Shown here: in pieces, positions 3,177 through 17,669 of the stretch | How positions within the stretch are numbered: the first letter of the stretch is position 1 | Layout of the letters: each line of letters opens with the position of its first letter | NCBI GenBank assembly: GCA_041697335.1 | Contig: JBGUGD010000007.1 | Coordinates: forward strand, 64,001 to 128,000 | Reading direction: 5' to 3' | DNA length: 64,000 nucleotides | Source: Vampirovibrionaceae bacterium NZW_1234 | GTDB lineage: Bacteria; Cyanobacteriota; Vampirovibrionia; Vampirovibrionales; JAGQHJ01 | Position numbers and translations under genes: made by a program | The notes under the pieces: generated by a model | The model's input: only the letters and a program-made list of their open reading frames with translations | Told to the model about the DNA's origin: nothing | Database searches by the model: none

Positions 3177-3917
3177 GTGGAAGGATTCGTTTATAGCTTG
3201 ATTTTTTGTGTCGCTGCTTTGTATGCGTCGGTGGGTCATGGCGGCGCTTCGGGTTATTTGGCGGTTATGTCCACTTTAACAATAGTATCACCTCAGGAAA
3301 TGGCAACGACTGCATTAGTTCTGAATCTGGTTGTATCTGGTATTGCTTTTTTCAACTATGCTCAAGCCGGTTTCTTTAGACTTGGATTGACATGGCCTTT
3401 TTTAATATTGTCTATTCCATTGGCGTTTTTAGGTGGGTTGATGCCATTAAAAGATTCACATTATTATGCTCTATTAGCATTGGTCTTGGCCTTTGTCGCG
3501 ATTCGCTTAATTGTACCGTCCACACTTTCTGTCATTGACACAGACACGAAAGCACCATCAAAGCCCTTGGCTTTAGGGGCAGGTGCTGCCATTGGTTTGC
3601 TTTCGGGGATGATTGGGATTGGTGGGGGCATTTTTTTAAGCCCGCTTATGGTGATGTGTCGTTGGGCCAAGACCAAAGAGATAAGCGCCACGGCAGCATG
3701 TTTTATCCTGGTAAACTCTATAGCAGGTCTGGCAGGACGTCAGGTGCAGCACTACGTTGCAATGTCGGATATTTTGTTTTATTTACTCCCAGCACTTTTG
3801 GGTGGTATTATCGGTTCGTATTTTGGTGCTCGAAAATTACCAAGCCCTCGGTTGAAACAGCTTTTAGGGCTTGTATTATTGATTGCCGTAGCAAAAATGC
3901 TCACTCGAGTTTTCTAG
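3177..3917 (+). CDS. sulfite exporter TauE/SafE family membrane protein
   Basis: YASVGHGGASGY and SGMIGIGGGIFLSP repeats; about 8 hydrophobic segments. Confidence 0.9.
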   Translation: MEGFVYSLIFCVAALYASVGHGGASGYLAVMSTLTIVSPQEMATTALVLNLVVSGIAFFNYAQAGFFRLGLTWPFLILSIPLAFLGGLMPLKDSHYYALLALVLAFVAIRLIVPSTLSVIDTDTKAPSKPLALGAGAAIGLLSGMIGIGGGIFLSPLMVMCRWAKTKEISATAACFILVNSIAGLAGRQVQHYVAMSDILFYLLPALLGGIIGSYFGARKLPSPRLKQLLGLVLLIAVAKMLTRVF

Positions 3918-5683
3918 GCTCTGGCATTAACCCGTTCATAAGTGCGTACAAAACCGGCTTGGGTGAGTTGGCAGTCCGGCTCCAATTCCAGGGTTTGATG
4001 ATAATAATCCAGCGCTTCCTGGTCTTGACCCATCACCTCATAGCAAGCGGCAATATAATACAAGGCATGGCTGTCCGGCCCAAACAAGGCAATGGCTTGT
4101 TGATACGATGCAAGGCATTCTTCAAACCGATCCAAACCGTAATAGAGTTTGCCTAACCAATACAATGTATTGAAATCTTTCCGAATCAGGAAAAAGTTGT
4201 CTTGGACCATGCTCATGGCATCAATCAGGGTTTGGCGCTGTTGCATGTCCAGATGAGGCAAGATGGTATCCAGATAAGGACCAATAAAGTAGAAGACAAT
4301 GGGATCGCAGTTGCAGAGTTTGAGGAGGGACATGCACCCCCGAAATACGCTCACCGGGTTTGATACTTGAAGAGAGTGAATCAAATCTTGCGAAAAATAC
4401 AAGTTATTGATTGGGTTTTCTCGATCGACTTTCTCTGAAAAATAATAGCGACTGTGACTGAATGACGGTTTTTCGTTTTCTGGAGCTAAAATTCCGAAAA
4501 CAGTTGATAGACAGACATCTTTGTCTTGTGTCGCGAAAAAGAGCCCACCCTGGTTGGTAAAAAATTGTCCAATGGCATGGTAGTTCACCATGAAGGAAAA
4601 TGACCCGTGTAGCGCATAGTTTTGGTCCCAATGGTCCAACATGTATTCAGGGTAGGTAAAGCCTTTATCAGACGAAATTAGTGCCAGTTTATTCTGGCCG
4701 ATGGCTTGTAAATTTCGGAGGCACTTAAACGAGCTGATGGGAAACAGAACGCTGGCGTTGCGGTATGTATCTTGATACTGCCGCAAGATGGTATTAAGTA
4801 CAGGGTCAGGGTAATAATTGCTGGAGACTTTGACGAAGTGTTCTGTCTTACGGATCTCTTGCAGTGTGGGGGCTTTATAGCGGTTTTCATCGTTTACGGG
4901 GCGATAGAAATTGACACGCCCTTCCATTAACTGCCCGTTTTCAATGCGGAACAGATCGTGGCGAATGGTGTCGAAAAAGTAGTTGGCAACAGCAACAACG
5001 GGATTGGATACTTCGCCCTGTTTCAGCGTTCGTTTTGTGCGGCGTAAGTAAAGCTCGGTGTCATCTTCAGGGCGGAAAACGGCAAAATCAATGAGCCCCT
5101 GCTCGGCATAAGGCTTGAACTTAGGGTTCGCTTCCCAAGCTTGGACGTTATTTTCCGTAAAGTCAGTCATCACATAGACCACCTGAAAGGGCCCTAGCTC
5201 GGGATAATAGGCTTTGCGCTTGGCCAACTCCTTGGTGACATAAAAACTCAATCCACCAGATCCGGCTGCTAACTCAATAACATACACCGGCTGGCTGGCA
5301 TCCAGTGTTTGGTAAGTGTCTAGCAGGAACGACAGAATGAGTTCGGCATACGTTCGCCCGATGAAGGCGTTACAGGTGGGGTAAAAGGGCACCTGATTCC
5401 AGGCTTCAATCCCGGCATTGCTGTAAAAGTCTTCCTGCATTTTCCACAGCAAGCATTCAGACAGGCGTTTGTCCGATTCCAGTACTTCATAATCCGGATT
5501 TGACAAGGCCCGTGTAAATGTTGCCGTCGCCCGATCATGCCCGCTTATCTGACTCAATGGGCTTAAGGGAATATACTGCGGCACTTCTCCCGGCTGTAAC
5601 AGAGGTTTGCTGATCGTTACCTGATCGCTATCAGTATTTTTTACTGTTTTGGATGCCCGCTTCTTTTTCTTTTGCTGTCCCAT
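3914..5683 (-). CDS. SAM-dependent methyltransferase-like (MidA/NDUFAF7-type) protein with C-terminal TPR repeats
   Basis: VIELAAGSGG SAM-binding-like motif, ANYFFD, C-terminal TPRs (LYWLGKLYY..., ALYYIAACYEVMG); start uncertain (5683, 5692 or further upstream). Confidence 0.7.
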   Translation of the reverse strand: MGQQKKKKRASKTVKNTDSDQVTISKPLLQPGEVPQYIPLSPLSQISGHDRATATFTRALSNPDYEVLESDKRLSECLLWKMQEDFYSNAGIEAWNQVPFYPTCNAFIGRTYAELILSFLLDTYQTLDASQPVYVIELAAGSGGLSFYVTKELAKRKAYYPELGPFQVVYVMTDFTENNVQAWEANPKFKPYAEQGLIDFAVFRPEDDTELYLRRTKRTLKQGEVSNPVVAVANYFFDTIRHDLFRIENGQLMEGRVNFYRPVNDENRYKAPTLQEIRKTEHFVKVSSNYYPDPVLNTILRQYQDTYRNASVLFPISSFKCLRNLQAIGQNKLALISSDKGFTYPEYMLDHWDQNYALHGSFSFMVNYHAIGQFFTNQGGLFFATQDKDVCLSTVFGILAPENEKPSFSHSRYYFSEKVDRENPINNLYFSQDLIHSLQVSNPVSVFRGCMSLLKLCNCDPIVFYFIGPYLDTILPHLDMQQRQTLIDAMSMVQDNFFLIRKDFNTLYWLGKLYYGLDRFEECLASYQQAIALFGPDSHALYYIAACYEVMGQDQEALDYYHQTLELEPDCQLTQAGFVRTYERVNARA

Positions 5684-5917
5684 GGGTCTCATTTTCCCGT
5701 AAGATGCCGTTGCTATTTTGACATAGCTGCTCCTGCAACAGATCATGCAGATAAGGGAGGTCTGCATTTTCAGTGGCAAAATCATCCGTTGCTGGCAATT
5801 GGTGATGCATTTGAGGAGAAAGCAAGCAAACTCAGTGAATTTTTAGTCTAAAGCAATTTTCGGAAGGATTGGGTTTTAATGAAATAGAAGTCGATACCAA
5901 TAATTTGAGTGACACAG

Positions 5918-6295
5918 ATGAACAACTCGGTTTCATTTTCTTCAAATACCCGTTTTGCAGGCACATTCTCCCAAATTCCTGTTCGTCACCATCAGCGGAA
6001 ATTACAGCCAACATGGATTATATTGAATCGTGAGGCTGAATTTCGAGCACCAACTCGCTTAAAGCCCAAACAACTACGGGCGTTGCTAAAATCCATGGCT
6101 CAAAAGTGGCCAAATCTTCGCATGAACCTTGAAATCAATAAAAAAATGCCGCTGCAACATTGGGCTAAAATCCAGATTGTTCCTAGCAATACTTCGGAAC
6201 AGGCACTTCTTGAGGAAACCCAGGCGGATCAGTATTTAAGGGGGCGATTGGAAAAGGTTAAGTCCCAGTTTGTTTATCACCATGGTGCTGTATGA
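5918..6295 (+). CDS. hypothetical protein with N-terminal SF...RFAG leader
   Basis: MNNSVSFSSNTRFAG start; 3' end overlaps the 3' end of the giant gene by 19 nt (convergent). Confidence 0.6.
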   Translation: MNNSVSFSSNTRFAGTFSQIPVRHHQRKLQPTWIILNREAEFRAPTRLKPKQLRALLKSMAQKWPNLRMNLEINKKMPLQHWAKIQIVPSNTSEQALLEETQADQYLRGRLEKVKSQFVYHHGAV

Positions 6296-9200
6296 TTTCT
6301 GTCGTTATAGCGTATTCTTGGCATTTGGAATTGTGTAGGAACGTTGTATCTATTTCCTTCGCCTTGTAAGTGGCTTGGTAATGCATACCCGTCAACCGTT
6401 CCATACCAGCGAGAACCTCGATCGCCTGCGAAGGCTTGAGCTTCTGACTCAAATAACTTAATTACACCTCCGACACGGGCTTGGTGAGGTATAGAGGCGC
6501 CGGCTTGCTGATTGCCTCTGTCATAACTCATAAAAAAGGTTGAACCATCGGGCCGTGTGACTTCATAAACCATCCCAAAGCCGTTATCTCGAATCTCACG
6601 TAACTCAAAGCCTCGTTGACGGAAATGATCAAGCACTTGAGCTTCCGTAGGTCGATGCGCGAGTAAGAAATTATTGGCATAGGTTTCTGCTTGGCTTCTG
6701 GTTAATCTAGCGGCCGCTTCCGGCGGGATTTCATGATAAGCCCGTTGGTCCCTTCCAGCCGGTTGCCCATGAGGCGTTGATGGACTTGGTATCGGATTCT
6801 GTGTGCGGCCCGTTGGATATATACGAATACTCCCATCCGGCATCTGAATAAAGTAGGTTCCTTGGAAGTGGGTGTTGCTACCGGTGGCATAAGTGGAGGT
6901 AATATCTTGTCCACCTACTAGCGTCGCCACATTAGCAGAAGTCATGTTTGGATGGACTCGTAAGGTTTCACCGATCACACGGGTCAGCCTGGCCTGCTCT
7001 GCCGCTGTAAACGTTGGATGCGCCCCAGAGTCAGCATAGGTTTGAGCGTTCGGGCCATGGTTACCACTTCTAAGGTTTTGAATTGCCGTGACATCCCCGC
7101 GAGCCATGGCCTCCCATAATTCCGTCATATAGGCTTCTCGGGCTCGTAGGTTTTGTAGTGTATCACCATTTAAACGTGAGCCGTGAGTATCGAGAGCCAT
7201 TGCTCTTTCCATGGCACTGTCTTGTGCTGCTCCAGAAAGACCATCAGCACGCGTCACTTCACTATCCGAAGCCTGTCTATAGCGTCTGGAAAGGGCCTGT
7301 AGTTCTGCTTGTTGTGCTCTTAGGGCTACTGGGTTGTTGCTTGCGGCAAACTCCAGAGTTTCACGCAATTGAAGTAATTCCCGTGGAACGGTTTGCCCAC
7401 CGCTTTCCAAGTTTCGAATCTGATTTCGGACACGCTGTAGGTCGGCTCGCGTCTGGTCAAAGTGTGCCATTTGCTGCGATAACTGGGAGTTTCCTTCTGA
7501 AGCCAAACGTTGTCGTGCAATAGAGACTTCAAAGGCTAGGTCGCCCGCATGAATCCGGCTGGCATTTGCCGGAATTTCAACGGTAATTGAGCCATCATTA
7601 TTGATGCGAACAGCCAGTCGGGCATTTGCATCGGAGTTTTGACGCACCTGAATTTCCCGGTTCGCAAACACATCAGAACCATTGGTAGGAATGGTGTCTT
7701 GAATAACCTGATTCACGTGATCAATAGTAGGCTTACTTAATTGACTGCTTTCACGGGCCACTGGGAACTCTTCAACGGCCCTTTGAATGGGCTCCGTCAG
7801 ATCGCTACTCCGTCTGGCCGCTTCATTGGCTCTGGGTTGGTTAGTGCGCGCTGCCGGGTCTGTTGGCTCTGTCAGGTTCATTAATCCACGACCCGCAGGG
7901 CTTGCAGTTCGGCCATTACGAATGACAGTCTCATGGTCTAAGCCTAAGCGTGTGGCTAGAGTGTCAGCCAGTTCGTTGAGACGGGTAGTATTATTTGCTC
8001 GGCGAGCTGCCATCATGTCTCGAATGAGCTGAGCGCCTTGCGTGTCACCAGTGGCTTCAAACTGAGCCAAGCGAGCCATAAGCTCTTCAGGAGCACTTAG
8101 ATAGCGGCGTACTGCCTCTTGATATTCCTGAGTAGCACGTTGTGTCTGTGCATCAACTGCTGATGATTTTGATTTCGCTTGTATTTCTCGTGTTCGGAGC
8201 AAGGCTTCTCGAGCGACGTTCAGCCGTTCTCCAGCTTGGGTTGCTTCGCGGAACATTTGATCAAAACTGGTTCCCAATTGAACGGCTTCAGGATTATTTT
8301 GCAGCCCGGACCGTCTTACGGCTTCAATCACGTCAGGGTGAATCGGTGTAGAAACCGAACGGCCATTCAACTTTGCAGCGGCAATATACGGTAACCCTTG
8401 TGCATGGGTCATCTCGTGAACGAGATGACTGTGAACTGTTGCTGCAGTAGTCTCTGAGGTGATGCCAACGCGGACAACATTTTGTGCCGGGTCATATGTG
8501 GCACCGGTCACGCCTTCAACATATTCAACTCTAGGGGCCGGTAAGGTATTTTCCATCCCTGCAGAGCGCCAAGCCTGCTCCCATTGCTGGCGGATGGTTT
8601 GCTCTGCCATGTTACGAACGGGTTCCGGTACTCTGGCAGGGTCCATCACACGTGGGCCTGAGGCGGTTTTAGCAGGAGGAGTAAGTTTACCCTTTGGTGC
8701 AATAGGCTTCTCAGCAGGAACCGTTTTGACATTTTTACCTTTTGGGGTTGTCGTTTCTGTCTCAGTCGGTTTTACTGTATCTTTGACTTTAGGTGTCGTT
8801 GTTTCTGTTTCGACTGTTGTGGTCTTACCTTTTCCTCCGGGAATGGTTTCCTCCACAGGAGTGGCGGTTTTTCCTTTGGCGATGGGTGTTTTGCCTTCTG
8901 GAGTTTCGATTACCACCGGTTTTTTCGGCACCAATACTTCTGGAGCAGTCATGCCTTTTGGTGTGGTACCTTTGGCAGGCACGGTTTCGGTAGGCTTGAC
9001 CCCGTAGGCGTCCATTAAGTGCTGCACATGAGATGGCACTTGTGGCGTAGACGGTTTGGATAAATACGCCTTTCCTGCACTTGCCAGACTATGGCCGTAG
9101 CCCAAGCCCATGTTGTAAGCGAACAGGGCGAAGTCCTCTGAGCTCATGAAGGGGCGCTCGTTGAGTTCTTTCATTTGATGGTTAATATCTGCAAGAGAGG

Positions 9201-12200
9201 CTTCCAGACGTTCTCGTTCTTGCGGGGGCAAGGTCACCTTGCTTAATTGGGCCTCAATGTCGCTGCGTTTTGCCTGAAGATGGGTCGCGGTAATCATGTA
9301 GTTGCTGGCGTATCCGGCCGTGTGACCCGCCATACCGGCTGCCAACGGATTTAAGACACCATGGCCGCCGATGTTGACGATGCCCTTGGCCAGCGGAGAT
9401 GCTTCTAGGCTCTTGGCTGCAGCCATTTTTCCAAAGGCAGCGCCTCCTAGCCTGGCTGCGCCGAACCCGGCACCACCGGCAATCCCGGCCACGGCGGTTT
9501 GGGTCCAGTTGTGATTTTGGAAGTCACCGTCAAAGTTCAGGGCAAAGTCGATAGCCATGCCGCCAAGGATAGCCAAGGGAAGACTTTGTGGCATCATAAC
9601 ACCCATCATAAAGGCCGCGGTAGCTTGAACCCAAGGTTCAAAGGCTTGGTGCTCCTTCAACATGGAACCCATTTCACGCATGGCGTTATCCATGTCACCA
9701 CTTTGATGCTCTAATGTTGCATCTCGGGTTTGGTACTCCCGCTCTTCCAGACGACGGGCGCCAGGTGGCAGAGAAGCACGCTGATCAGGCGTGACCACTA
9801 TCAACTGGTGGGTTTGCCCGGCAGGCATCATGCCGTTTTGTGGCACTGGTACGGAGTACACCTCATAATTGCTGATTGGATTGCCGCGCTCATCAAAGGG
9901 CACGGCGACAGGTTTCGCACCGTCCATTTGCACATACTTTACACTGGGCTTTTCAATGCTGTTAACATCCTTGCCTTGCGACAAAGCCGTAATATACTGG
10001 CGTAGATAGGTTTGCGGTGGCTGTACCCGGACTTTTTCGCCGTTGACCGTAATGTGGTACGAACCGAACATTTCATCGTAATGTTGCTGAACCTTGGCAA
10101 TGCCTTTTTGAAGTTCTTTTGGCGAGGACACGCCATGCAGGTCTTGGAGTGCCTCCTGCATCTGCTGGAAGTGGGTTGGCTTTTCACCAGGCTTGGCGAT
10201 GCGTTCCAGGCCAAACGGGTCTCTCCGGCCACTGCCGAACAAGATACCTTTTTCACTGGGTGCAAAGGCCTTCCAGCGGTTCTGGTTAAACAGATCTTTG
10301 CGATCCATGATAAAGTTGACGTCAATGCCGAGGTTATCCAGAGCCTTGAACAGGTTGCGGCGTCCTTCAAAGGGATCTTCCCCACTGAGGTCCTTGTACG
10401 CATGAATCGTCATTTTGGTTAGCTGCTTGCCCAAGGTGGACTCTGTTTGTTTAAAGAAGTCGTTGACCTGCTTTTCCAAATCTTGCAGACGGGGGGCAAT
10501 GGATTTCACCATGCCTTTGGCAACCTGGGCGCCTTGGCCTTGAGCAATGTATGACTCAAATCCATGTTGATCGCTTAATTCGTTATACTGGCTTTGAGTC
10601 ATGATGGGGCCGCGGGCCAACTGCTGCAACTGCATCATCATGGCGTTGAATCGACCCTTGAGTTGCTGTCCTTCCGGCGTGGTAGGGCTCCATGGAGCGC
10701 CTTCCCCACCACCGTTTATAGCCAGCCACAGGCGGTTCAATTTTTCCCCGCGTTGGCCTGGGTCTGTAGTCGCGATGGCCTGCTGTGCCAATTCCCGAAT
10801 GGGTTGTGGCACACTGGTGTTGTCGCCGATATCTTTGGCCAGCAAGACCATTCCTTCGGCGATGGCATCTGGGTTTAGGCTGACTTCCTTGGCAATCGCA
10901 CCTAATAGAAGTTGGTGTTCATGGACTGCCGGGGCATCTGCCCCACTGGGGGATGCAGGTTTCCACTCAGCCAGAAGATGTGCCGCCTTTGCTAGGTTTT
11001 TGGCCTGTTGATTGGCATTGACACCTGGCTTTTGCAATTCTTTGAGCTGATCTGTGGTGGCCTTAGGAAGAGCTTTAAAGAGTGGGCCGCCGTCCAGTTG
11101 CTTCAGTAAATTGCCTCGAAGGCTGGGGTTGTTCACCACATGGCTCTGGATGAGATGTTGGGTGATCTGTTTAGTCCAATCATCGCTGCTGCCGGGTGTG
11201 GTGGTGAATTTTGACAGATCGCCGCTAATGCCGGTCAGTGTGGATCCAATGGCCTGAACATCGGCTTGGCTGTATTGAGGCAGCTGGCTCAGGATGCCAT
11301 TAATTTGAGTCGCCATTTCCGGATCGGACTGGGCGGCATGTTGCAGGACAAGACGTAATTGAGCCACATCACTGTGGGTCATTTGATAATTCGGCTTAGA
11401 CATCCGCTCCATCAGACCGGCGGTCATCTCCCGGATTTCTGGGTTGCTCGTGGTGGACTGGCCGGAGCCTTTGCCCGACCACAAGCGGTCTTTAGCTTTA
11501 TAGAAGTCTGGGCGCAAGTTCGATGAATAGATGGTTTTGTCATCGGCCTTGGGCTTGGGTGCAGGTGCCTCAAAGCTTGGCAGTTTAAAGCTTAACCGTT
11601 TCGAGGGCAGTTCCGGGGTATCATCAACCACGGTGATGTCCTCTCGGACCTGGGTGTCCGGATTCACCCTGAAGAAACGGCCATCTGCTGTCTGGTAGAT
11701 TGGTGCATAGCTGTCTCGGGTCGTAAATGACTGCGCTACCTGGACAAATTCCATGGGGCCGTCGGCACGGGTACGAACTACAATACTGTCAGGATTGCCG
11801 ATCCGGACTTCACCGGTCTGGCTATCCACAATCACCGGGTGCCCATCCAGCTGACCGGAGCGAATGCGGGGTTTCTCCTTGGCTGCGGCTTTCTCCTCGA
11901 GTTTAAACAACATCTTACCAGACGGTTTTGCATCCAGGTCAATCTTGTCCAGCCGGATTTTCCCAAGCTTAACCATTCCTGAAAATTCGTCATCGTAGCG
12001 AATGACGTTTTGCGGCAAGTCATTCAACTTGACCGTTACCGGGGTTCCAGGTTCCTGGTTGAGTTTGTCCAGGACGCCGTCCAGGTTATGCTGTTTGGTA
12101 AGCTTGCCAAGGGTATCGGTTATAGCCTTGCCTTGTGTTTTTTGCAAGTGCTTTAGGTCCGGGATAATGCCCTTGGCGTCAATGGCTTTATCAATGGTTT

Positions 12201-14742
12201 TTTGGAGATCCTTGGGAAGGGTGCCGGATTTGCTCAAGGATTCTAGCCCATTTCGAATGTCGTTTAGGGAGCTATGCTGTCCCAGATGGCTCATCAACTG
12301 GGTTTGTAGCGTGCCAGCCATCCGCTGAATGGCCGGATCGCTTCCAGATTCATTCACATACGCATGAATTTGTCGGCTTAATTCCAAGAGCTGGCGGGTA
12401 ATTTCTTGTGCTTGCTCGGGACCAGCCTCCATCGCATCGGGCCGATCCATCAAGGCCTTAGCAGCCTGACGCAGCGGTGAATTTTCAGCCACGCCTTTTT
12501 GCTCCAGGGCGCGATCCAGACGCTGCATATTCAATAGCAGGCTTAACGGTACGGTTCCAGGTGCTTGAACCCGATCGTATTCCTGAGCCATTTGATCCAA
12601 GGTCATGGCCTGGGTCAGGATGCTGTTCTGCATGGCCGGATCTGTGGGATCCATGGCCCCAAGCTGTTTTTCGAGGTTTAGAATCTGCCGGCGGTTGCGA
12701 ACAAATTCCTCGTTGCTCAAATTCAGGACTTTGACCTGAGGCATATCCTTGAAGAAATCGCCACGGTCACCCTTGCTCATTCTTGCCCACATTTTTGGCG
12801 TAATAAGGATCTCTTTATCGAGAGCTTTGCTTTTGCTGACACCTTTTTTCTCCATGTCAGCCAGGACTTTTGGGGACACCAGGCTGGGGAAAACCATCTT
12901 ATCTGAGGACTTCAGCTGGACTTTTTCCAGTTCTTTCTGAAAGTCTTTGAAGAAAGGCAAATCGGGTTTTTCCGTCAGAATGTCGACTTGGCCGTTTTTA
13001 TCTTTCAAGTTGTGTTTGCCGACATACTCTTTCAGCCATGGATCAAAATCACCGCCTTTTTCCTTGGGCTTGGCTTTGATGTTGTTGTAGTCCATGACCG
13101 CAATCATGGATTGAGTGCTGCGTTCAGCAATCTCATAGCTTTTCTGCACAAATTTATGGGCTTGTTCCGCACCGGCTTCGGGCGTGGATTTCGTGACCAC
13201 TTCTTTCAGGAAACGAATTTGTTCGAGGTATTCTTCAAGACGGTGGCCAGATTTCTCAATGTCTTTGGTATCCATGTAATGCTTGCGCAGTTGGCTGATG
13301 TGCTCATCAAGCTGCTTATAATCTTCTTTCTTACTAGGAAGCTTCGTCAGAGAGAATGGCACTGATGGTGCGTTATCAACGGTTTTTTCTTTCCCGGAAG
13401 GTTTGCCGCTGGGGGTTAGCCATTCGCTGTGGGTCTGCAAAATCTTGGAGAAATGCTTATAAGCATCCTCGCGTTTGGAGGCCAGATCTGTTCCGTCTTG
13501 GCCTTTGACACCCTCAAGACCGCTTTCCCGAAGTTTTTGCTGAACGTAGATGGCTTTAATATCGGAGTTCAGTTTCGGCAGCACAGCGTTCTTCATGTAG
13601 TTCTTCACTTGGGTGTCGGCTTTCGGATCCGCCAACGTTTCCTTAACGTTCTTCATGCCGGTTTCGACATGCTTGAGATTGAAGGACGGATTTTTAACGG
13701 CTTTCAACTGTGTCAGCATTTCATCCGGCGACAAGGTGGGCGAGATGATTTCGTTGTATTTTTCCCGGTACTTGTCCATTGCCTTTGTCACGGCCTTGTC
13801 AGTGGCCACTTCGTCAGGTTGGGTTTCCAGTAATTTCTTTTCCATGCTGGGCCAGTCTTTTGCCAGTTCGCTAGGAACTTTCATGGTGGCCTTGTTCTGG
13901 TTTAACAGCTCGCTCAATTGCTGATCCAATTGCAGGCTGTTCACCCATACTTCCGCCAGCTGAAAGGGATAATTGCTCATCTGGCCCTGATTAATGGCTT
14001 CCGTGGCTTCACCGGCTTGCTGGCTGATAAACGTCGCTAGTTGCTGACGAAACGCGAGGTAGTCGGCAATAACCTGGGCCAAGCCTTCCGGGTTGTCACG
14101 CAGTTGTGCAATCCGCTCGGAAAATTCGGCAATCTGCTGTTGAAGGGAGTCGTATGTTTTGGCTGGGGTCAGACTGCCCAAATCCACGTTCTTGGATTTA
14201 GACACCGGCTTTTTACCGAGTTCGGAGGTTTTAACAACCGGACTGGCATCAGCCTTGCCTTTGGGTGCTACTGGTAACGGCTTGTCGGAACCGGTTAGTG
14301 CTTTGTAGACCTCTTCAAGGCTTGGAGGTGGAGTATACTTGGCCTTGGCTTTTCCATCTCGTGCGTCAGAGCCGCCTTCGCCACTTTCTTTGCCGCCGCT
14401 GCCTTTGTCTTCAATTCGGTCTTTGTAATCTGAGCCCTTAACAGCCATCTTGCCGTCGCCCCCAGTGGGGCTGTCAACGGTAGATTTTTCAGAAGTGGAC
14501 TTGTCTTTGGCTTTCGCAGGGGTTACCTCTGTGCCTATAGGCATATAGGGACCTGCCTTACCCTGGAGAATATACCGCAGAACAGGTTCGGAGTTACCCG
14601 TCATTTTGGCCAGCATTTTAATCATGTCATCTTGTGACACCGGCATGTCTTTCTTGCCGGCTTGTGGCGAGCTCTTGCTCCCTGCAAGCGGAGGTGTCTC
14701 AAAACCAGTTATCCGTTTTGGGTCTGGTATCACCACGATCAA
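6277..14742 (-). CDS. giant (about 2820 aa) putative polymorphic toxin/effector with translocation-like hydrophobic segment, HExxH zincin motif and C-terminal nuclease-like domain
   Basis: 8.4-kb uninterrupted ORF; GAGG upstream of TTG 14742/GTG 14736; Gly/Ala hydrophobic stretch about 9290-9640; TPKGK-rich linker about 8690-8990; HEMTH at 8404-8418; C-terminal SYD...H...GGVIK...R-x-x-GT-x-D. Confidence 0.8.
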   Translation of the reverse strand: MIVVIPDPKRITGFETPPLAGSKSSPQAGKKDMPVSQDDMIKMLAKMTGNSEPVLRYILQGKAGPYMPIGTEVTPAKAKDKSTSEKSTVDSPTGGDGKMAVKGSDYKDRIEDKGSGGKESGEGGSDARDGKAKAKYTPPPSLEEVYKALTGSDKPLPVAPKGKADASPVVKTSELGKKPVSKSKNVDLGSLTPAKTYDSLQQQIAEFSERIAQLRDNPEGLAQVIADYLAFRQQLATFISQQAGEATEAINQGQMSNYPFQLAEVWVNSLQLDQQLSELLNQNKATMKVPSELAKDWPSMEKKLLETQPDEVATDKAVTKAMDKYREKYNEIISPTLSPDEMLTQLKAVKNPSFNLKHVETGMKNVKETLADPKADTQVKNYMKNAVLPKLNSDIKAIYVQQKLRESGLEGVKGQDGTDLASKREDAYKHFSKILQTHSEWLTPSGKPSGKEKTVDNAPSVPFSLTKLPSKKEDYKQLDEHISQLRKHYMDTKDIEKSGHRLEEYLEQIRFLKEVVTKSTPEAGAEQAHKFVQKSYEIAERSTQSMIAVMDYNNIKAKPKEKGGDFDPWLKEYVGKHNLKDKNGQVDILTEKPDLPFFKDFQKELEKVQLKSSDKMVFPSLVSPKVLADMEKKGVSKSKALDKEILITPKMWARMSKGDRGDFFKDMPQVKVLNLSNEEFVRNRRQILNLEKQLGAMDPTDPAMQNSILTQAMTLDQMAQEYDRVQAPGTVPLSLLLNMQRLDRALEQKGVAENSPLRQAAKALMDRPDAMEAGPEQAQEITRQLLELSRQIHAYVNESGSDPAIQRMAGTLQTQLMSHLGQHSSLNDIRNGLESLSKSGTLPKDLQKTIDKAIDAKGIIPDLKHLQKTQGKAITDTLGKLTKQHNLDGVLDKLNQEPGTPVTVKLNDLPQNVIRYDDEFSGMVKLGKIRLDKIDLDAKPSGKMLFKLEEKAAAKEKPRIRSGQLDGHPVIVDSQTGEVRIGNPDSIVVRTRADGPMEFVQVAQSFTTRDSYAPIYQTADGRFFRVNPDTQVREDITVVDDTPELPSKRLSFKLPSFEAPAPKPKADDKTIYSSNLRPDFYKAKDRLWSGKGSGQSTTSNPEIREMTAGLMERMSKPNYQMTHSDVAQLRLVLQHAAQSDPEMATQINGILSQLPQYSQADVQAIGSTLTGISGDLSKFTTTPGSSDDWTKQITQHLIQSHVVNNPSLRGNLLKQLDGGPLFKALPKATTDQLKELQKPGVNANQQAKNLAKAAHLLAEWKPASPSGADAPAVHEHQLLLGAIAKEVSLNPDAIAEGMVLLAKDIGDNTSVPQPIRELAQQAIATTDPGQRGEKLNRLWLAINGGGEGAPWSPTTPEGQQLKGRFNAMMMQLQQLARGPIMTQSQYNELSDQHGFESYIAQGQGAQVAKGMVKSIAPRLQDLEKQVNDFFKQTESTLGKQLTKMTIHAYKDLSGEDPFEGRRNLFKALDNLGIDVNFIMDRKDLFNQNRWKAFAPSEKGILFGSGRRDPFGLERIAKPGEKPTHFQQMQEALQDLHGVSSPKELQKGIAKVQQHYDEMFGSYHITVNGEKVRVQPPQTYLRQYITALSQGKDVNSIEKPSVKYVQMDGAKPVAVPFDERGNPISNYEVYSVPVPQNGMMPAGQTHQLIVVTPDQRASLPPGARRLEEREYQTRDATLEHQSGDMDNAMREMGSMLKEHQAFEPWVQATAAFMMGVMMPQSLPLAILGGMAIDFALNFDGDFQNHNWTQTAVAGIAGGAGFGAARLGGAAFGKMAAAKSLEASPLAKGIVNIGGHGVLNPLAAGMAGHTAGYASNYMITATHLQAKRSDIEAQLSKVTLPPQERERLEASLADINHQMKELNERPFMSSEDFALFAYNMGLGYGHSLASAGKAYLSKPSTPQVPSHVQHLMDAYGVKPTETVPAKGTTPKGMTAPEVLVPKKPVVIETPEGKTPIAKGKTATPVEETIPGGKGKTTTVETETTTPKVKDTVKPTETETTTPKGKNVKTVPAEKPIAPKGKLTPPAKTASGPRVMDPARVPEPVRNMAEQTIRQQWEQAWRSAGMENTLPAPRVEYVEGVTGATYDPAQNVVRVGITSETTAATVHSHLVHEMTHAQGLPYIAAAKLNGRSVSTPIHPDVIEAVRRSGLQNNPEAVQLGTSFDQMFREATQAGERLNVAREALLRTREIQAKSKSSAVDAQTQRATQEYQEAVRRYLSAPEELMARLAQFEATGDTQGAQLIRDMMAARRANNTTRLNELADTLATRLGLDHETVIRNGRTASPAGRGLMNLTEPTDPAARTNQPRANEAARRSSDLTEPIQRAVEEFPVARESSQLSKPTIDHVNQVIQDTIPTNGSDVFANREIQVRQNSDANARLAVRINNDGSITVEIPANASRIHAGDLAFEVSIARQRLASEGNSQLSQQMAHFDQTRADLQRVRNQIRNLESGGQTVPRELLQLRETLEFAASNNPVALRAQQAELQALSRRYRQASDSEVTRADGLSGAAQDSAMERAMALDTHGSRLNGDTLQNLRAREAYMTELWEAMARGDVTAIQNLRSGNHGPNAQTYADSGAHPTFTAAEQARLTRVIGETLRVHPNMTSANVATLVGGQDITSTYATGSNTHFQGTYFIQMPDGSIRIYPTGRTQNPIPSPSTPHGQPAGRDQRAYHEIPPEAAARLTRSQAETYANNFLLAHRPTEAQVLDHFRQRGFELREIRDNGFGMVYEVTRPDGSTFFMSYDRGNQQAGASIPHQARVGGVIKLFESEAQAFAGDRGSRWYGTVDGYALPSHLQGEGNRYNVPTQFQMPRIRYNDRNHTAPW

Positions 14743-15137: not shown

Positions 15138-15500
15138 ATGCAATATTTAAACCGTTTCTTTTTATTGGGTATGGCTTTGTTCGCTGTTATAGGCTTATCG
15201 GCCTGTACCGGAGCCAACCGTCCTCAACAGGGCATGGATGATACCATGTCGCCTCAGGAAACAAATACAAGTGGTACAGGTACTGCTGACAATGCAGAAA
15301 TTCCTTCGGGAACATCTTCAACGGGTACTCAATCTAGTCCGTCTACAAATACGGGGGGAATCGATACGACAGGAACCCAGTCCGGATCTACAGAAACCGG
15401 AACGGGGAGCAGTGGTATGGGTGTAGGCAGTCCGTCTCCTTCTGGGACTGCAGGTCCACCTGCTGGAGGGAGAGGGAATGCATCTTCTGGCGGACAATAA
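15138..15500 (+). CDS. low-complexity Gly/Ser/Thr-rich lipoprotein
   Basis: AGGAG RBS; signal peptide with lipobox LSA-C; disordered G/S/T-rich body. Confidence 0.8.
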   Translation: MQYLNRFFLLGMALFAVIGLSACTGANRPQQGMDDTMSPQETNTSGTGTADNAEIPSGTSSTGTQSSPSTNTGGIDTTGTQSGSTETGTGSSGMGVGSPSPSGTAGPPAGGRGNASSGGQ

Positions 15501-16022: not shown

Positions 16023-17669
16023 ATGGTTCATATTTCACATCTTTCTTTTGAAAGAACACGATTTGTGTCTTCAAATACCAAGCGATTTTCTCCGTCTTCA
16101 TTCAATGAGGCTGCATTTCGATTTTCCGGTCGACAACAAGTCAGCTTGTCCAAGCAGGTTGATAATTTTATGTCCTGGGTGAGCGATTCTCATTTATCAA
16201 ACGTTTTCAGCGCGAATGGAGTCGAGTATTATGCACCACCTATCCCAAGCCAAATATCAGGACTAACGCCGCAGCAGAACTCGGAAAACAATCGTACGCT
16301 GGCTTTGTTTAAAAGAACGTTTCCCAACTTTTTATGGACAGGTATTGAGTGTAGTAATCCAGTTAATGCCAAAGGTGAGCGGTGGGATCAATTAGCGATG
16401 ACTCGGTTTTATGCTCCCAAAGAACGTCAGCGGCAGGTCAAGTTGATGCGCTCACTTGGGTTTTATAATGTTCGCTTGGGGATTCCGAATCATAAAGTAG
16501 CGCAGCAGAAAAGCTGGCGGCAAATGGATTCTATTCTTTCTTCCTTTCAGCAAGGTAATGAAAAGTATCCACCGGAGGAACAGATTAAAATCAGCTTGGA
16601 TCTCCAGCATTTTGGTTTGCCCGACTCACTCAATAATGTAGCCGATCGGTCGAAGAGTTTCTATTTGAACCCGCAGTGGCCTAAGCAATTTGCTCGCTAG
16701 GCAAAATGGGTCCTGCAACGCTATCTTAAACAAGTTGATGCGATTACCATTATTAATGAACCGTTGATCACCAACCAGTTTTCGAGCACCCACCTGAACG
16801 AATCCTTTCCTGGGCATGGGCACAAAGCGTTTAACCGCTATTTCATCGAGCGTGCTTTTCTCATCGCCAAGGCTGCTTTGATGGGTCGGTACAATATTGA
16901 GACTCTTTTACAAGCCCAGCCCCAGGGGCAGAATCGTAAGATTTTTATTCATAATGAAAGCTGTGAGCAGACCGTTGGGGATGAAGATTTCAATCGATTC
17001 CGTCGCTTTCTGACCAGTGATTTGATTTTGGGACATGACTGGTTGCTCAAGGGGAATTTTGTTCAGTCCGACATGTTTCAGTGGATGCTGCGCCAGATGG
17101 AAGAAGGGGGCCATCCTCAAGGTCGTGATTTCCTGGTGAAAGGCTTAACCGAAATCCGGGATATGCACCATTCTTTTCAGCGCCGATTTAAAAAATCCAT
17201 GAAGGCGGATACGGTTTTTGGAATTGATTATTATCTGACCAACGAACGTGGCTCTGGCATTAGTGGGCGACTTGAGGAATACAGTCAGGAGCTTCGGCAA
17301 GGCACCAGAAGAGGCTTATTTGGTATGGGCATTGATTATTGGGAGCGCTATCATTTGCCTTTGCTTCATACAGAAACTAATTTTCGGCATGAGTCTAGTG
17401 ATGTTTGGGGATTTCAGCAGTTAGTCGAGCTGGCTCAATTGGCTAAGGCTAAAATTCCGGTTTTAGGGTTTACCTGGTATAGCCTGATGGATCAATTTGG
17501 CTGGGAACGTGGGTTAGACTGTTCCCCTGAAGCAGCGGCTCACTACCCGGTTGGATTGGTCAGTACCCAGAATCATGAGTTACGGAAATTTTCTTCTCGT
17601 ATTTTGCCAGACTTACGCCATGCCTTGTTGTTTCGCAGGGCGGAATCTACCGCATCCTTATCGCCTTAA
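16023..17669 (+). pseudogene. GH1-like (beta-glucosidase/galactosidase) gene interrupted by one in-frame TAG at 16698-16700
   Basis: ORFs 16023-16700 and 16764-17669 share a frame; read-through gives YLNPQWPKQFAR*AKWVLQRYLKQVDAITIINEPLITN, collinear with the intact paralog at 36630-38291; LWTGIECSNP, NEP, HTET and GFTWYSLMDQF motifs present. Confidence 0.85.

Follow-up and report, generated by a model that had tools for sequence, protein, structure and literature searches.

The stretch of DNA analysed here (the window, 64,000 nucleotides of contig JBGUGD010000007.1 from Vampirovibrionaceae bacterium NZW_1234) carries a giant gene on its minus strand and, running into its 3' end tail to tail, a small gene on the plus strand. 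An earlier reading made from the letters alone (the sequence-only reading) had described the giant gene as a single 2821-amino-acid (aa) open reading frame (ORF) at 6277-14742 with polymorphic-toxin architecture. The ORF is real: the minus strand holds a single open frame of 2821 codons, and the plus-strand reading of the same interval is broken by many stops throughout. The convergent partner gene at 5909-6295 was absent from that account. We find that the C-terminal part of the giant protein recurs on unrelated N-termini elsewhere in the genome, that the partner gene is linked to its last domain (the tip), and that a change in codon usage marks a mosaic junction inside the gene. Its activity, processing, export route and target we infer, with differing confidence. 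The features are as follows (GC3, GC content at third codon positions).

6277-14742, minus strand: giant multidomain ORF, 2821 aa from a TTG, 2789 aa from the first ATG at 14646
9643-14646, minus strand: N-terminal chassis, aa 33-1700; 9.4% Lys, GC3 0.57-0.58, no Sec signal seen
9298-9624, minus strand: weakly hydrophobic Gly/Ala block, aa ~1707-1815, which may cross membranes (candidate pre-toxin segment)
8638-9042, minus strand: Thr/Pro/Lys-rich spacer, aa 1901-2035; junction of the codon-usage change, GC3 0.59 to 0.40
8053-8535, minus strand: zincin-like module 1, with intact HExxH (H2109, E2110, H2113) and a downstream Glu motif at aa 2217-2224
7273-7662, minus strand: zincin-like module 2, degenerate (neither the His ligands nor the third-ligand Glu remain); its homologs are the modules of C34, C26, C37 and C14 (below)
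6373-6657, minus strand: C-terminal tip, aa ~2696-2790; putative divergent Ntox21-related domain, predicted catalytic residues D2741, H2753 and K2762
5909-6295, plus strand: 128-aa partner gene, tail to tail, overlapping the toxin stop by 19 nucleotides (nt); candidate immunity protein or chaperone

The start of the giant ORF is uncertain (TTG at 14742 or ATG at 14646), and a database protein has 2819 aa. Four public runs, which carry hot-spring or microbial-mat metagenome labels and represent no more than three samples (the source possibly among them), provided independent contigs. These agree with the region at ≥99% without indels or joints, and the region is therefore not an assembly artefact. 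Across these near-identical strains there was no exchange of the tip. The motifs quoted in the sequence-only reading were recovered in place: the Gly/Ala block at aa 1709-1810 (9618-9313), the spacer motifs at aa 1978-2003, the HExxH at aa 2109-2113 (8418-8404) with its downstream Glu motif, and the tip motifs at aa 2723-2785 (6576-6388). The whole protein matched nothing above cut-off in Pfam and nothing at E≤0.01 in NCBIfam, and these two libraries detected no RHS, haemagglutinin, VgrG/PAAR, LXG/WXG, FHA, MafB or signal peptide, in keeping with the claimed lack of RHS, hemagglutinin, VgrG and LXG.

Paralogs sharing the C-terminus, and the convergent partner gene

The genome (3.70 Mb, 94.75% complete) belongs to a member of the Vampirovibrionia/Melainabacteria: one of its export-gate proteins has its nearest named matches in records of Vampirovibrio, Gastranaerophilales and Melainabacteria (62-67%). 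BLAST and profile searches over all 23,638 six-frame ORFs of this genome recovered three paralogs of the giant protein (hereafter the query): C34 (C34:123239-126676, 1135 aa; 27% over 407 aa, E 1e-24), C26 (C26:74472-79214, 1575 aa, with pentapeptide repeats) and C14 (C14:81129-87245, 2026 aa, with a transglutaminase-like domain at Pfam E 4e-4 that by eye lacks the catalytic Cys). Common to all four are the last 350-450 residues only, comprising a zincin-like module, a helical linker and the tip. Their N-termini are mutually unrelated, and the chassis of the query has no match in Pfam or NCBIfam and no paralog in its own genome. Homology between C34 and C26 is continuous from zincin into tip (E 4e-26), and a tip profile made without the query retrieves the query at E 5e-9. 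Two further loci carry one part each. The zincin module at C37:106266-108122 (E 2e-13) precedes an unrelated C-terminus, the sole case of the zincin with another C-terminus; C6:4013-5533 has a tip and no zincin, and lies directly 3' of a 973-aa gene that carries a Gly/Ala block in another frame.

The zincin-tip payload is thus reused by this genome on several different chassis. Because the tip is fixed and the N-terminus exchanged, the variation is the reverse of that in classical polymorphic toxins. The sequence-only reading had suggested looking for homologs with the same N-terminus and different tips, and we found the opposite; it had also named conservation from end to end, as in a structural protein, as the outcome that would speak against a toxin, and the paralogs share their C-terminal part only. 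Its term 'orphan' holds outside the genome, where 1.84 billion searched representatives gave one match, a 60-aa metagenome fragment (P0007) that retains the S-x-D-x-G, PH, K and R-x-x-GT-x-D residues, but not inside it. We conclude that this is a real gene encoding a lineage-restricted candidate toxin.

No co-directional gene follows the toxin stop. Two homologs of the partner, of 34% and 26% identity, lie opposite the C34 and C14 genes at distances of 26 and 9 nt, and a profile search found exactly three copies in the genome, each tail to tail with a tip gene (-19, 26 and 9 nt) and none elsewhere, so that three of the four tip paralogs have one. The genes flanking the pair differ at each of the three loci, and tip and partner therefore travel as a unit. 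The partner has no family match above cut-off in Pfam or NCBIfam, where it matches no known immunity family. The simplest reading, to which we give somewhat better than even chances, is that it is the antidote to the tip; alternatively, it could act as a chaperone or be co-exported as a helper.

All three partners begin with an RF[GSA] leader. Across the genome, RF[GSA][GANS] after a Ser/Pro-rich leader occurs within the first 60 residues of 82 of 1514 ORFs (≥300 aa), compared with 17 and 12 in control windows, and examples within the window are 5909-6295 and 16023-16700. This N-terminal motif could be an export or chaperone signal. In the partner model (pLDDT 52.7), RF-G forms the first strand of the fold and is not a free leader.

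Other genes near the family loci were noted in passing. Just past the partner gene, the 623-aa product of 3914-5785 (minus strand) has C-terminal TPRs and a region that weakly resembles SAM methyltransferases; this gene is absent from the other family loci. Divergent from the giant gene, 15138-15500 (plus strand) encodes a small protein of 120 aa, rich in Gly, Ser and Thr, whose N-terminus resembles that of a lipoprotein. At 16023-17669 (plus strand) lie two adjoining ORFs of 225 and 301 aa without a Pfam match, the first with an RF[GS] leader, which we take to resemble two halves of one glycosidase-like protein. C6:988-5533 comprises two co-directional genes in different frames (973 aa, and 500 aa with the tip nearest to canonical Ntox21), and the latter overlaps at its end with a convergent 453-aa gene that has no Pfam family. 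Upstream of the C14 paralog, C14:87553-90655 encodes several short Pro-rich repeat proteins, one of which has a short 'TEV' motif in common with three N-termini, those of the query, of C14 and of the upstream C6 gene. The C37 protein (615 aa, RFG leader, intact family zincin) resembles a stand-alone effector.

Composition and modules of the payload

Up to the spacer (aa 33-1900) GC3 is 0.57-0.59, and from there on (aa 1901-2821) it drops to 0.40-0.43, the genome mean being 0.57 (sd 0.08). This pattern is consistent with a payload joined to its chassis by recombination at the spacer. Lysine makes up 9.4% of aa 33-1700 and 0.6% of aa 2036-2821, where arginine rises to 10.1%, and the last 628 residues hold two lysines, one of them K2762 of the tip. 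C26 has two lysines beyond aa 1180, one of which is the aligned Lys, and 400-residue windows with ≤3 Lys and ≥25 Arg occur in three of 666 long ORFs, two being the query and C26. That K2762 survives in this lysine desert supports a functional role for it. Catalytic chains of toxins that enter the cytosol are described, in the part of PMC13696103 that bears on this, as Lys-poor and as thereby avoiding ubiquitination in the eukaryotic cytosol. The payloads of C34, C14 and C6 are Lys-rich, so the argument that lysine scarcity makes about the target is a modest one.

The zincin claimed in the sequence-only reading stands as an intact HExxH module, but it is not the only one, since a second zincin-like module without metal ligands lies downstream. 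Module 1 aligns by eye with the family module (HHalign 54.6%, E 1e-4, over the Glu helix only) and matched nothing in Pfam or among library and Protein Data Bank (PDB) sequences. It is the dead module 2, not the intact module 1, that is the copy aligning with the paralogs. C26, C37 and C14 retain the metal-binding His pair; C34 does not, its sole copy having lost the second His. Module 1, C26, C37 and C14 show, with no library match, the motif pattern of a candidate zincin (three strands, then HExxH and a distant Glu). In this they resemble the PVC-metallopeptidase toxins, outlined in passages of PMC3482391 as having an HExxHxxQ-E releasing peptidase upstream of the toxin domain; unlike those, the query has HExxHxQ in an internal rather than N-terminal position, duplicated with a dead copy. 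Since it also has no Pfam match and the 94.75% complete genome has no match to the tail-sheath family, we rejected a PVC-metallopeptidase toxin. Release of the tip by the zincin is not a family requirement, because the query has a dead copy closest to its tip, C34 a broken one and C6 none. These observations weaken the earlier suggestion of self-processing, and we consider zincin self-cleavage unlikely; the zincin may instead be a second effector.

The Gly/Ala block has the only 19-residue hydropathy peak above 1.2 in the query (aa 1707-1739, maximum 1.45, weak). In C34, C26, C14 and the 973-aa gene of the C6 locus, hydrophobic blocks lie at the corresponding position, with no detectable homology to one another, and the atlas leads for the query block are the pre-toxin domains DUF637 and PT-TG at 0.87, a weak lead. 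The translocation-like segment of the sequence-only reading thus keeps its composition, its position and this lead, and lacks homologous blocks in the paralogs and a strong peak. On that basis, membrane crossing by the segment seems to us a little short of an even proposition. Pore-forming colicins have convergent immunity genes, a layout that our literature search did not confirm, and the block itself might be the toxic part, colicin-A-like, with the partner neutralising it. The convergent orientation and the hydrophobic block in the large members would suit such a pore, but the partner, a soluble protein, goes with the tip rather than the block, the blocks of partner-bearing genes are not homologous, and the hydropathy of the query block is low. 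We regard a pore as very improbable.

Passages of Zhang et al. (2012; PMC3482391) describe polymorphic toxin systems in terms that the query shares in several respects: a presumed trafficking region, a candidate pre-toxin segment, a peptidase-like module and a putative nuclease tip, a small, possibly cognate gene alongside, a mosaic junction, and an inactive transglutaminase-like domain in one paralog. It departs from them in that the N-terminus varies while the tip is held, the partner is convergent, none of the trafficking domains listed there is present, and no orphan tip-immunity cassettes were seen beside the gene. As the paralogs share their C-terminus only and Pfam and NCBIfam gave no match to a known trafficking domain or repeat, we did not retain a classical polymorphic toxin. 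The Amoebophilus APD1/APD2 and Microscilla effector expansions, as far as they are set out in PMC3482391, likewise consist of several dispersed paralogs in one genome and not in relatives, probably deployed in parallel. Those expansions keep the N-terminus, vary the C-terminus and have signal peptides, whereas here the reverse holds and no signal peptides were seen.

Relation of the tip to Ntox21

Ntox21 (PF15526) is defined, in the family description of PMC3482391, by K, [DS]xDxxxH, K, RxG[ST] and RxxD. Its structural reference, the Enterobacter cloacae CdiA-CT (PDB 4NTQ), a colicin E3-type 16S rRNase, has the active site D203, D205, H207 and K214 and cuts at 16S A1493/G1494, according to the portion of PMC9086364 devoted to it. 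The query counterparts are D2741, G2743, H2753 and K2762. Like 4NTQ, the query tip sits at the extreme C-terminus and has collinear landmarks (helix, G-aromatic, G, [ST]xD, H, G, K, R..GTxD). It differs in an 8-residue insertion before the His, an extra residue in R..GT (R2778-xx-GTxD) and Gly2743 for D205, and in having no FHA, RHS, MafB or LXG chassis and no co-directional immunity gene.

The evidence for homology runs through the paralogs. Ntox21 is the top Pfam family for the tips of C26 (E 0.006, 17.4 bits) and C6 (E 0.028, 15.2 bits), both below the curated cut-off of 25 bits. A profile of eight natural Ntox21 tips, anchored on a member matching 4NTQ at E 1e-8, ranked C6 first and C26 second among all genome ORFs. 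Aligned by HHalign against these eight, five family tips scored 29.8 (probability 67%, E 5e-5), compared with 9.9 ± 1.9 (maximum 17.8) in 150 column shuffles, and the C6 tip reached 91.6%. In the opposite direction, a six-tip family profile with no Ntox21 inside returned a real Ntox21 as its first non-member (E 0.015) and three of the eight references among its first four. The tip of C26 on its own aligned with the query's clade at 84%, and C26 is tied to that clade because its homology with C34 is continuous from zincin into tip. In a joint alignment of nine sequences (six family, three Ntox21) the four invariant columns are Asp, His, Gly and Lys, K2762, the counterpart of K214, being invariant in 9/9; across tips only 24-38% identical, D, H and K do not change. 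The query tip is thus probably a remote homolog of Ntox21, by way of its paralogs. The earlier call of an Ntox21-like tip gains this indirect support through C26 and C6, and lacks a match of the query itself and D205.

Several observations weigh against an Ntox21-related RNase with an antidote. The query tip matched Pfam Ntox21 at no E≤10, nor in a family search of its own genome, scored -1.3 bits against the eight-tip profile, and fell outside the first 9 rows of a profile of Ntox21, C26 and C6. Without C26 the HHalign score is 10.8, within the shuffle null, and the C6 tip does not align significantly with the other family tips (0.6%). The D205 position is Gly in the query, C34, C26, C14 and P0007. 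The [DS]xDxxxH motif is absent as such: S2739-x-D2741 and H2753 are present and invariant, at a D-H spacing of 12 rather than 4. The R-G spacing is one longer, with RxxGTxD in the query, C34 and P0007 and the canonical RxGT only in C6, and the terminal RxxD is absent from the query tip. The partner profile found no homolog at C26 or C6 in the genome, though a live RNase should need one, and the poor partner model (ferredoxin/ACT-like) resembles no known immunity family. Searches beyond the genome found no relatives in other genomes with which co-variation could be followed, and lysine scarcity does not extend to C34, C14 or C6. Strict Ntox21 membership was rejected on score and motifs, and we call the tip Ntox21-related.

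In the structural check proposed earlier, three fold searches with the AlphaFold tip model (pLDDT 74.8, His loop 59) listed no nuclease toxin, and neither 4NTQ nor colicin E3 was among the matches. The predicted order, helix-strand-strand-strand-loop-strand-helix-strand, fits the alpha-then-beta order listed for 4NTQ in the corresponding section of PMC9086364. The missing D205, the altered spacing, the lack of a direct profile or fold match, the several dead enzyme modules in the family and the very large size of the protein would also suit a binding domain that derives from Ntox21 but is catalytically dead or repurposed, or one that is merely convergent, on a surface adhesin or attachment-pad component. 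The invariance of D, H and K across such divergent tips, the survival of K2762 and a dedicated linked partner are hard to explain that way, and we think this improbable. The reading we favour, with modest confidence, is a toxin whose tip is a divergent RNase related to Ntox21, working like the Ntox21/colicin E3 RNases, and whose partner is a candidate antidote; that the tip is an active RNase with the expected substrate we would put at even chances.

Delivery, target and meaning

No VirB4 match was found in the genome. A predatory habit is generally ascribed to the order. For the cultured predator V. chlorellavorus, which preys on Chlorella, a plasmid type IV system is proposed in the pages of PMC4451040 that concern it. 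The genome encodes two complete type III export sets. The flagellar FlhA passes the TIGR01398 cut-off, and the second FlhA/SctV falls below both the FlhA and the HrcV cut-offs; the second set has its own FliI, FliH, FliF-like, rod, FlhB and FliPQR genes.

C32:10113-20950; C29:178709-179809; C8:66049-68093; C2:99140-104321: second flagellum-derived type III export set

At least two FHIPEP matches, a few of them fragments, occur in 46 of 49 genomes of the order, and the second set has close homologs in Gastranaerophilales records. Our literature search surfaced no paper on it, and it is possibly a bigger lead than the toxin. Export through this second apparatus followed by self-translocation is our preferred guess, at well below even odds.

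In the mechanism we propose, the gene product would be a secreted multi-module protein toxin. The long lineage-specific chassis would probably serve in targeting or binding, and the Gly/Ala segment would help the C-terminal payload (the spacer, the live zincin and the dead one, the linker and the tip) across the target membrane. The tip, as a divergent Ntox21/colicin-E3-type metal-independent RNase, would most likely cut small-subunit rRNA and stop translation, and the convergent 128-aa gene would supply the cognate antidote from its own promoter. That the target is eukaryotic rather than bacterial appears to us somewhat less probable than the converse.

A different arrangement, MARTX-like in logic and not in sequence, would be a eukaryote-directed multi-effector protein, in which the zincin would be a second effector protease, the tip an RNase directed at ribosomes of the host cytosol or organelles, and the partner either a chaperone or a helper exported alongside. 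The Arg-for-Lys bias confined to the payload, as in the cytosol-entering toxin chains that PMC13696103 treats in part, points this way, as do the zincin standing alone behind an RFG-type leader in C37, the transglutaminase-like domain without Cys in C14, the genome-enriched RF[GSA] leader on all three partners and the Chlorella prey of one cultured relative (PMC4451040, in the part on its habit). Set against these are the bacterial 16S rRNA cut by the Ntox21 members characterised in the relevant part of PMC9086364, the Lys-rich payloads of C34, C14 and C6, and the place of RF-G within the partner fold. We consider such a multi-effector unlikely, and return to the RNase toxin with its antidote.

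New here are the convergent partner, the second, dead zincin, the Lys-poor payload of different codon usage and the second type III export set. At its boldest, and rather improbably, the family could represent an undescribed Vampirovibrionia toxin system, in which signal-less giants leave by the second type III export set, cross membranes by their own Gly/Ala segments and deliver a Lys-depleted, ubiquitin-evading payload with a re-tuned Ntox21 rRNase against eukaryotic or plastid ribosomes, with N-terminus swapping and a new convergent immunity family. The family bears on how Vampirovibrionia kill or exploit other cells: it offers a candidate RNase of 130 aa in which three residues are named, tip-partner pairs at three loci, and a possible route of export. 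If our reading is true, it would extend Ntox21 to a form without D205, add an immunity family that is new and convergently arranged, and reveal toxins diversified at their targeting end.

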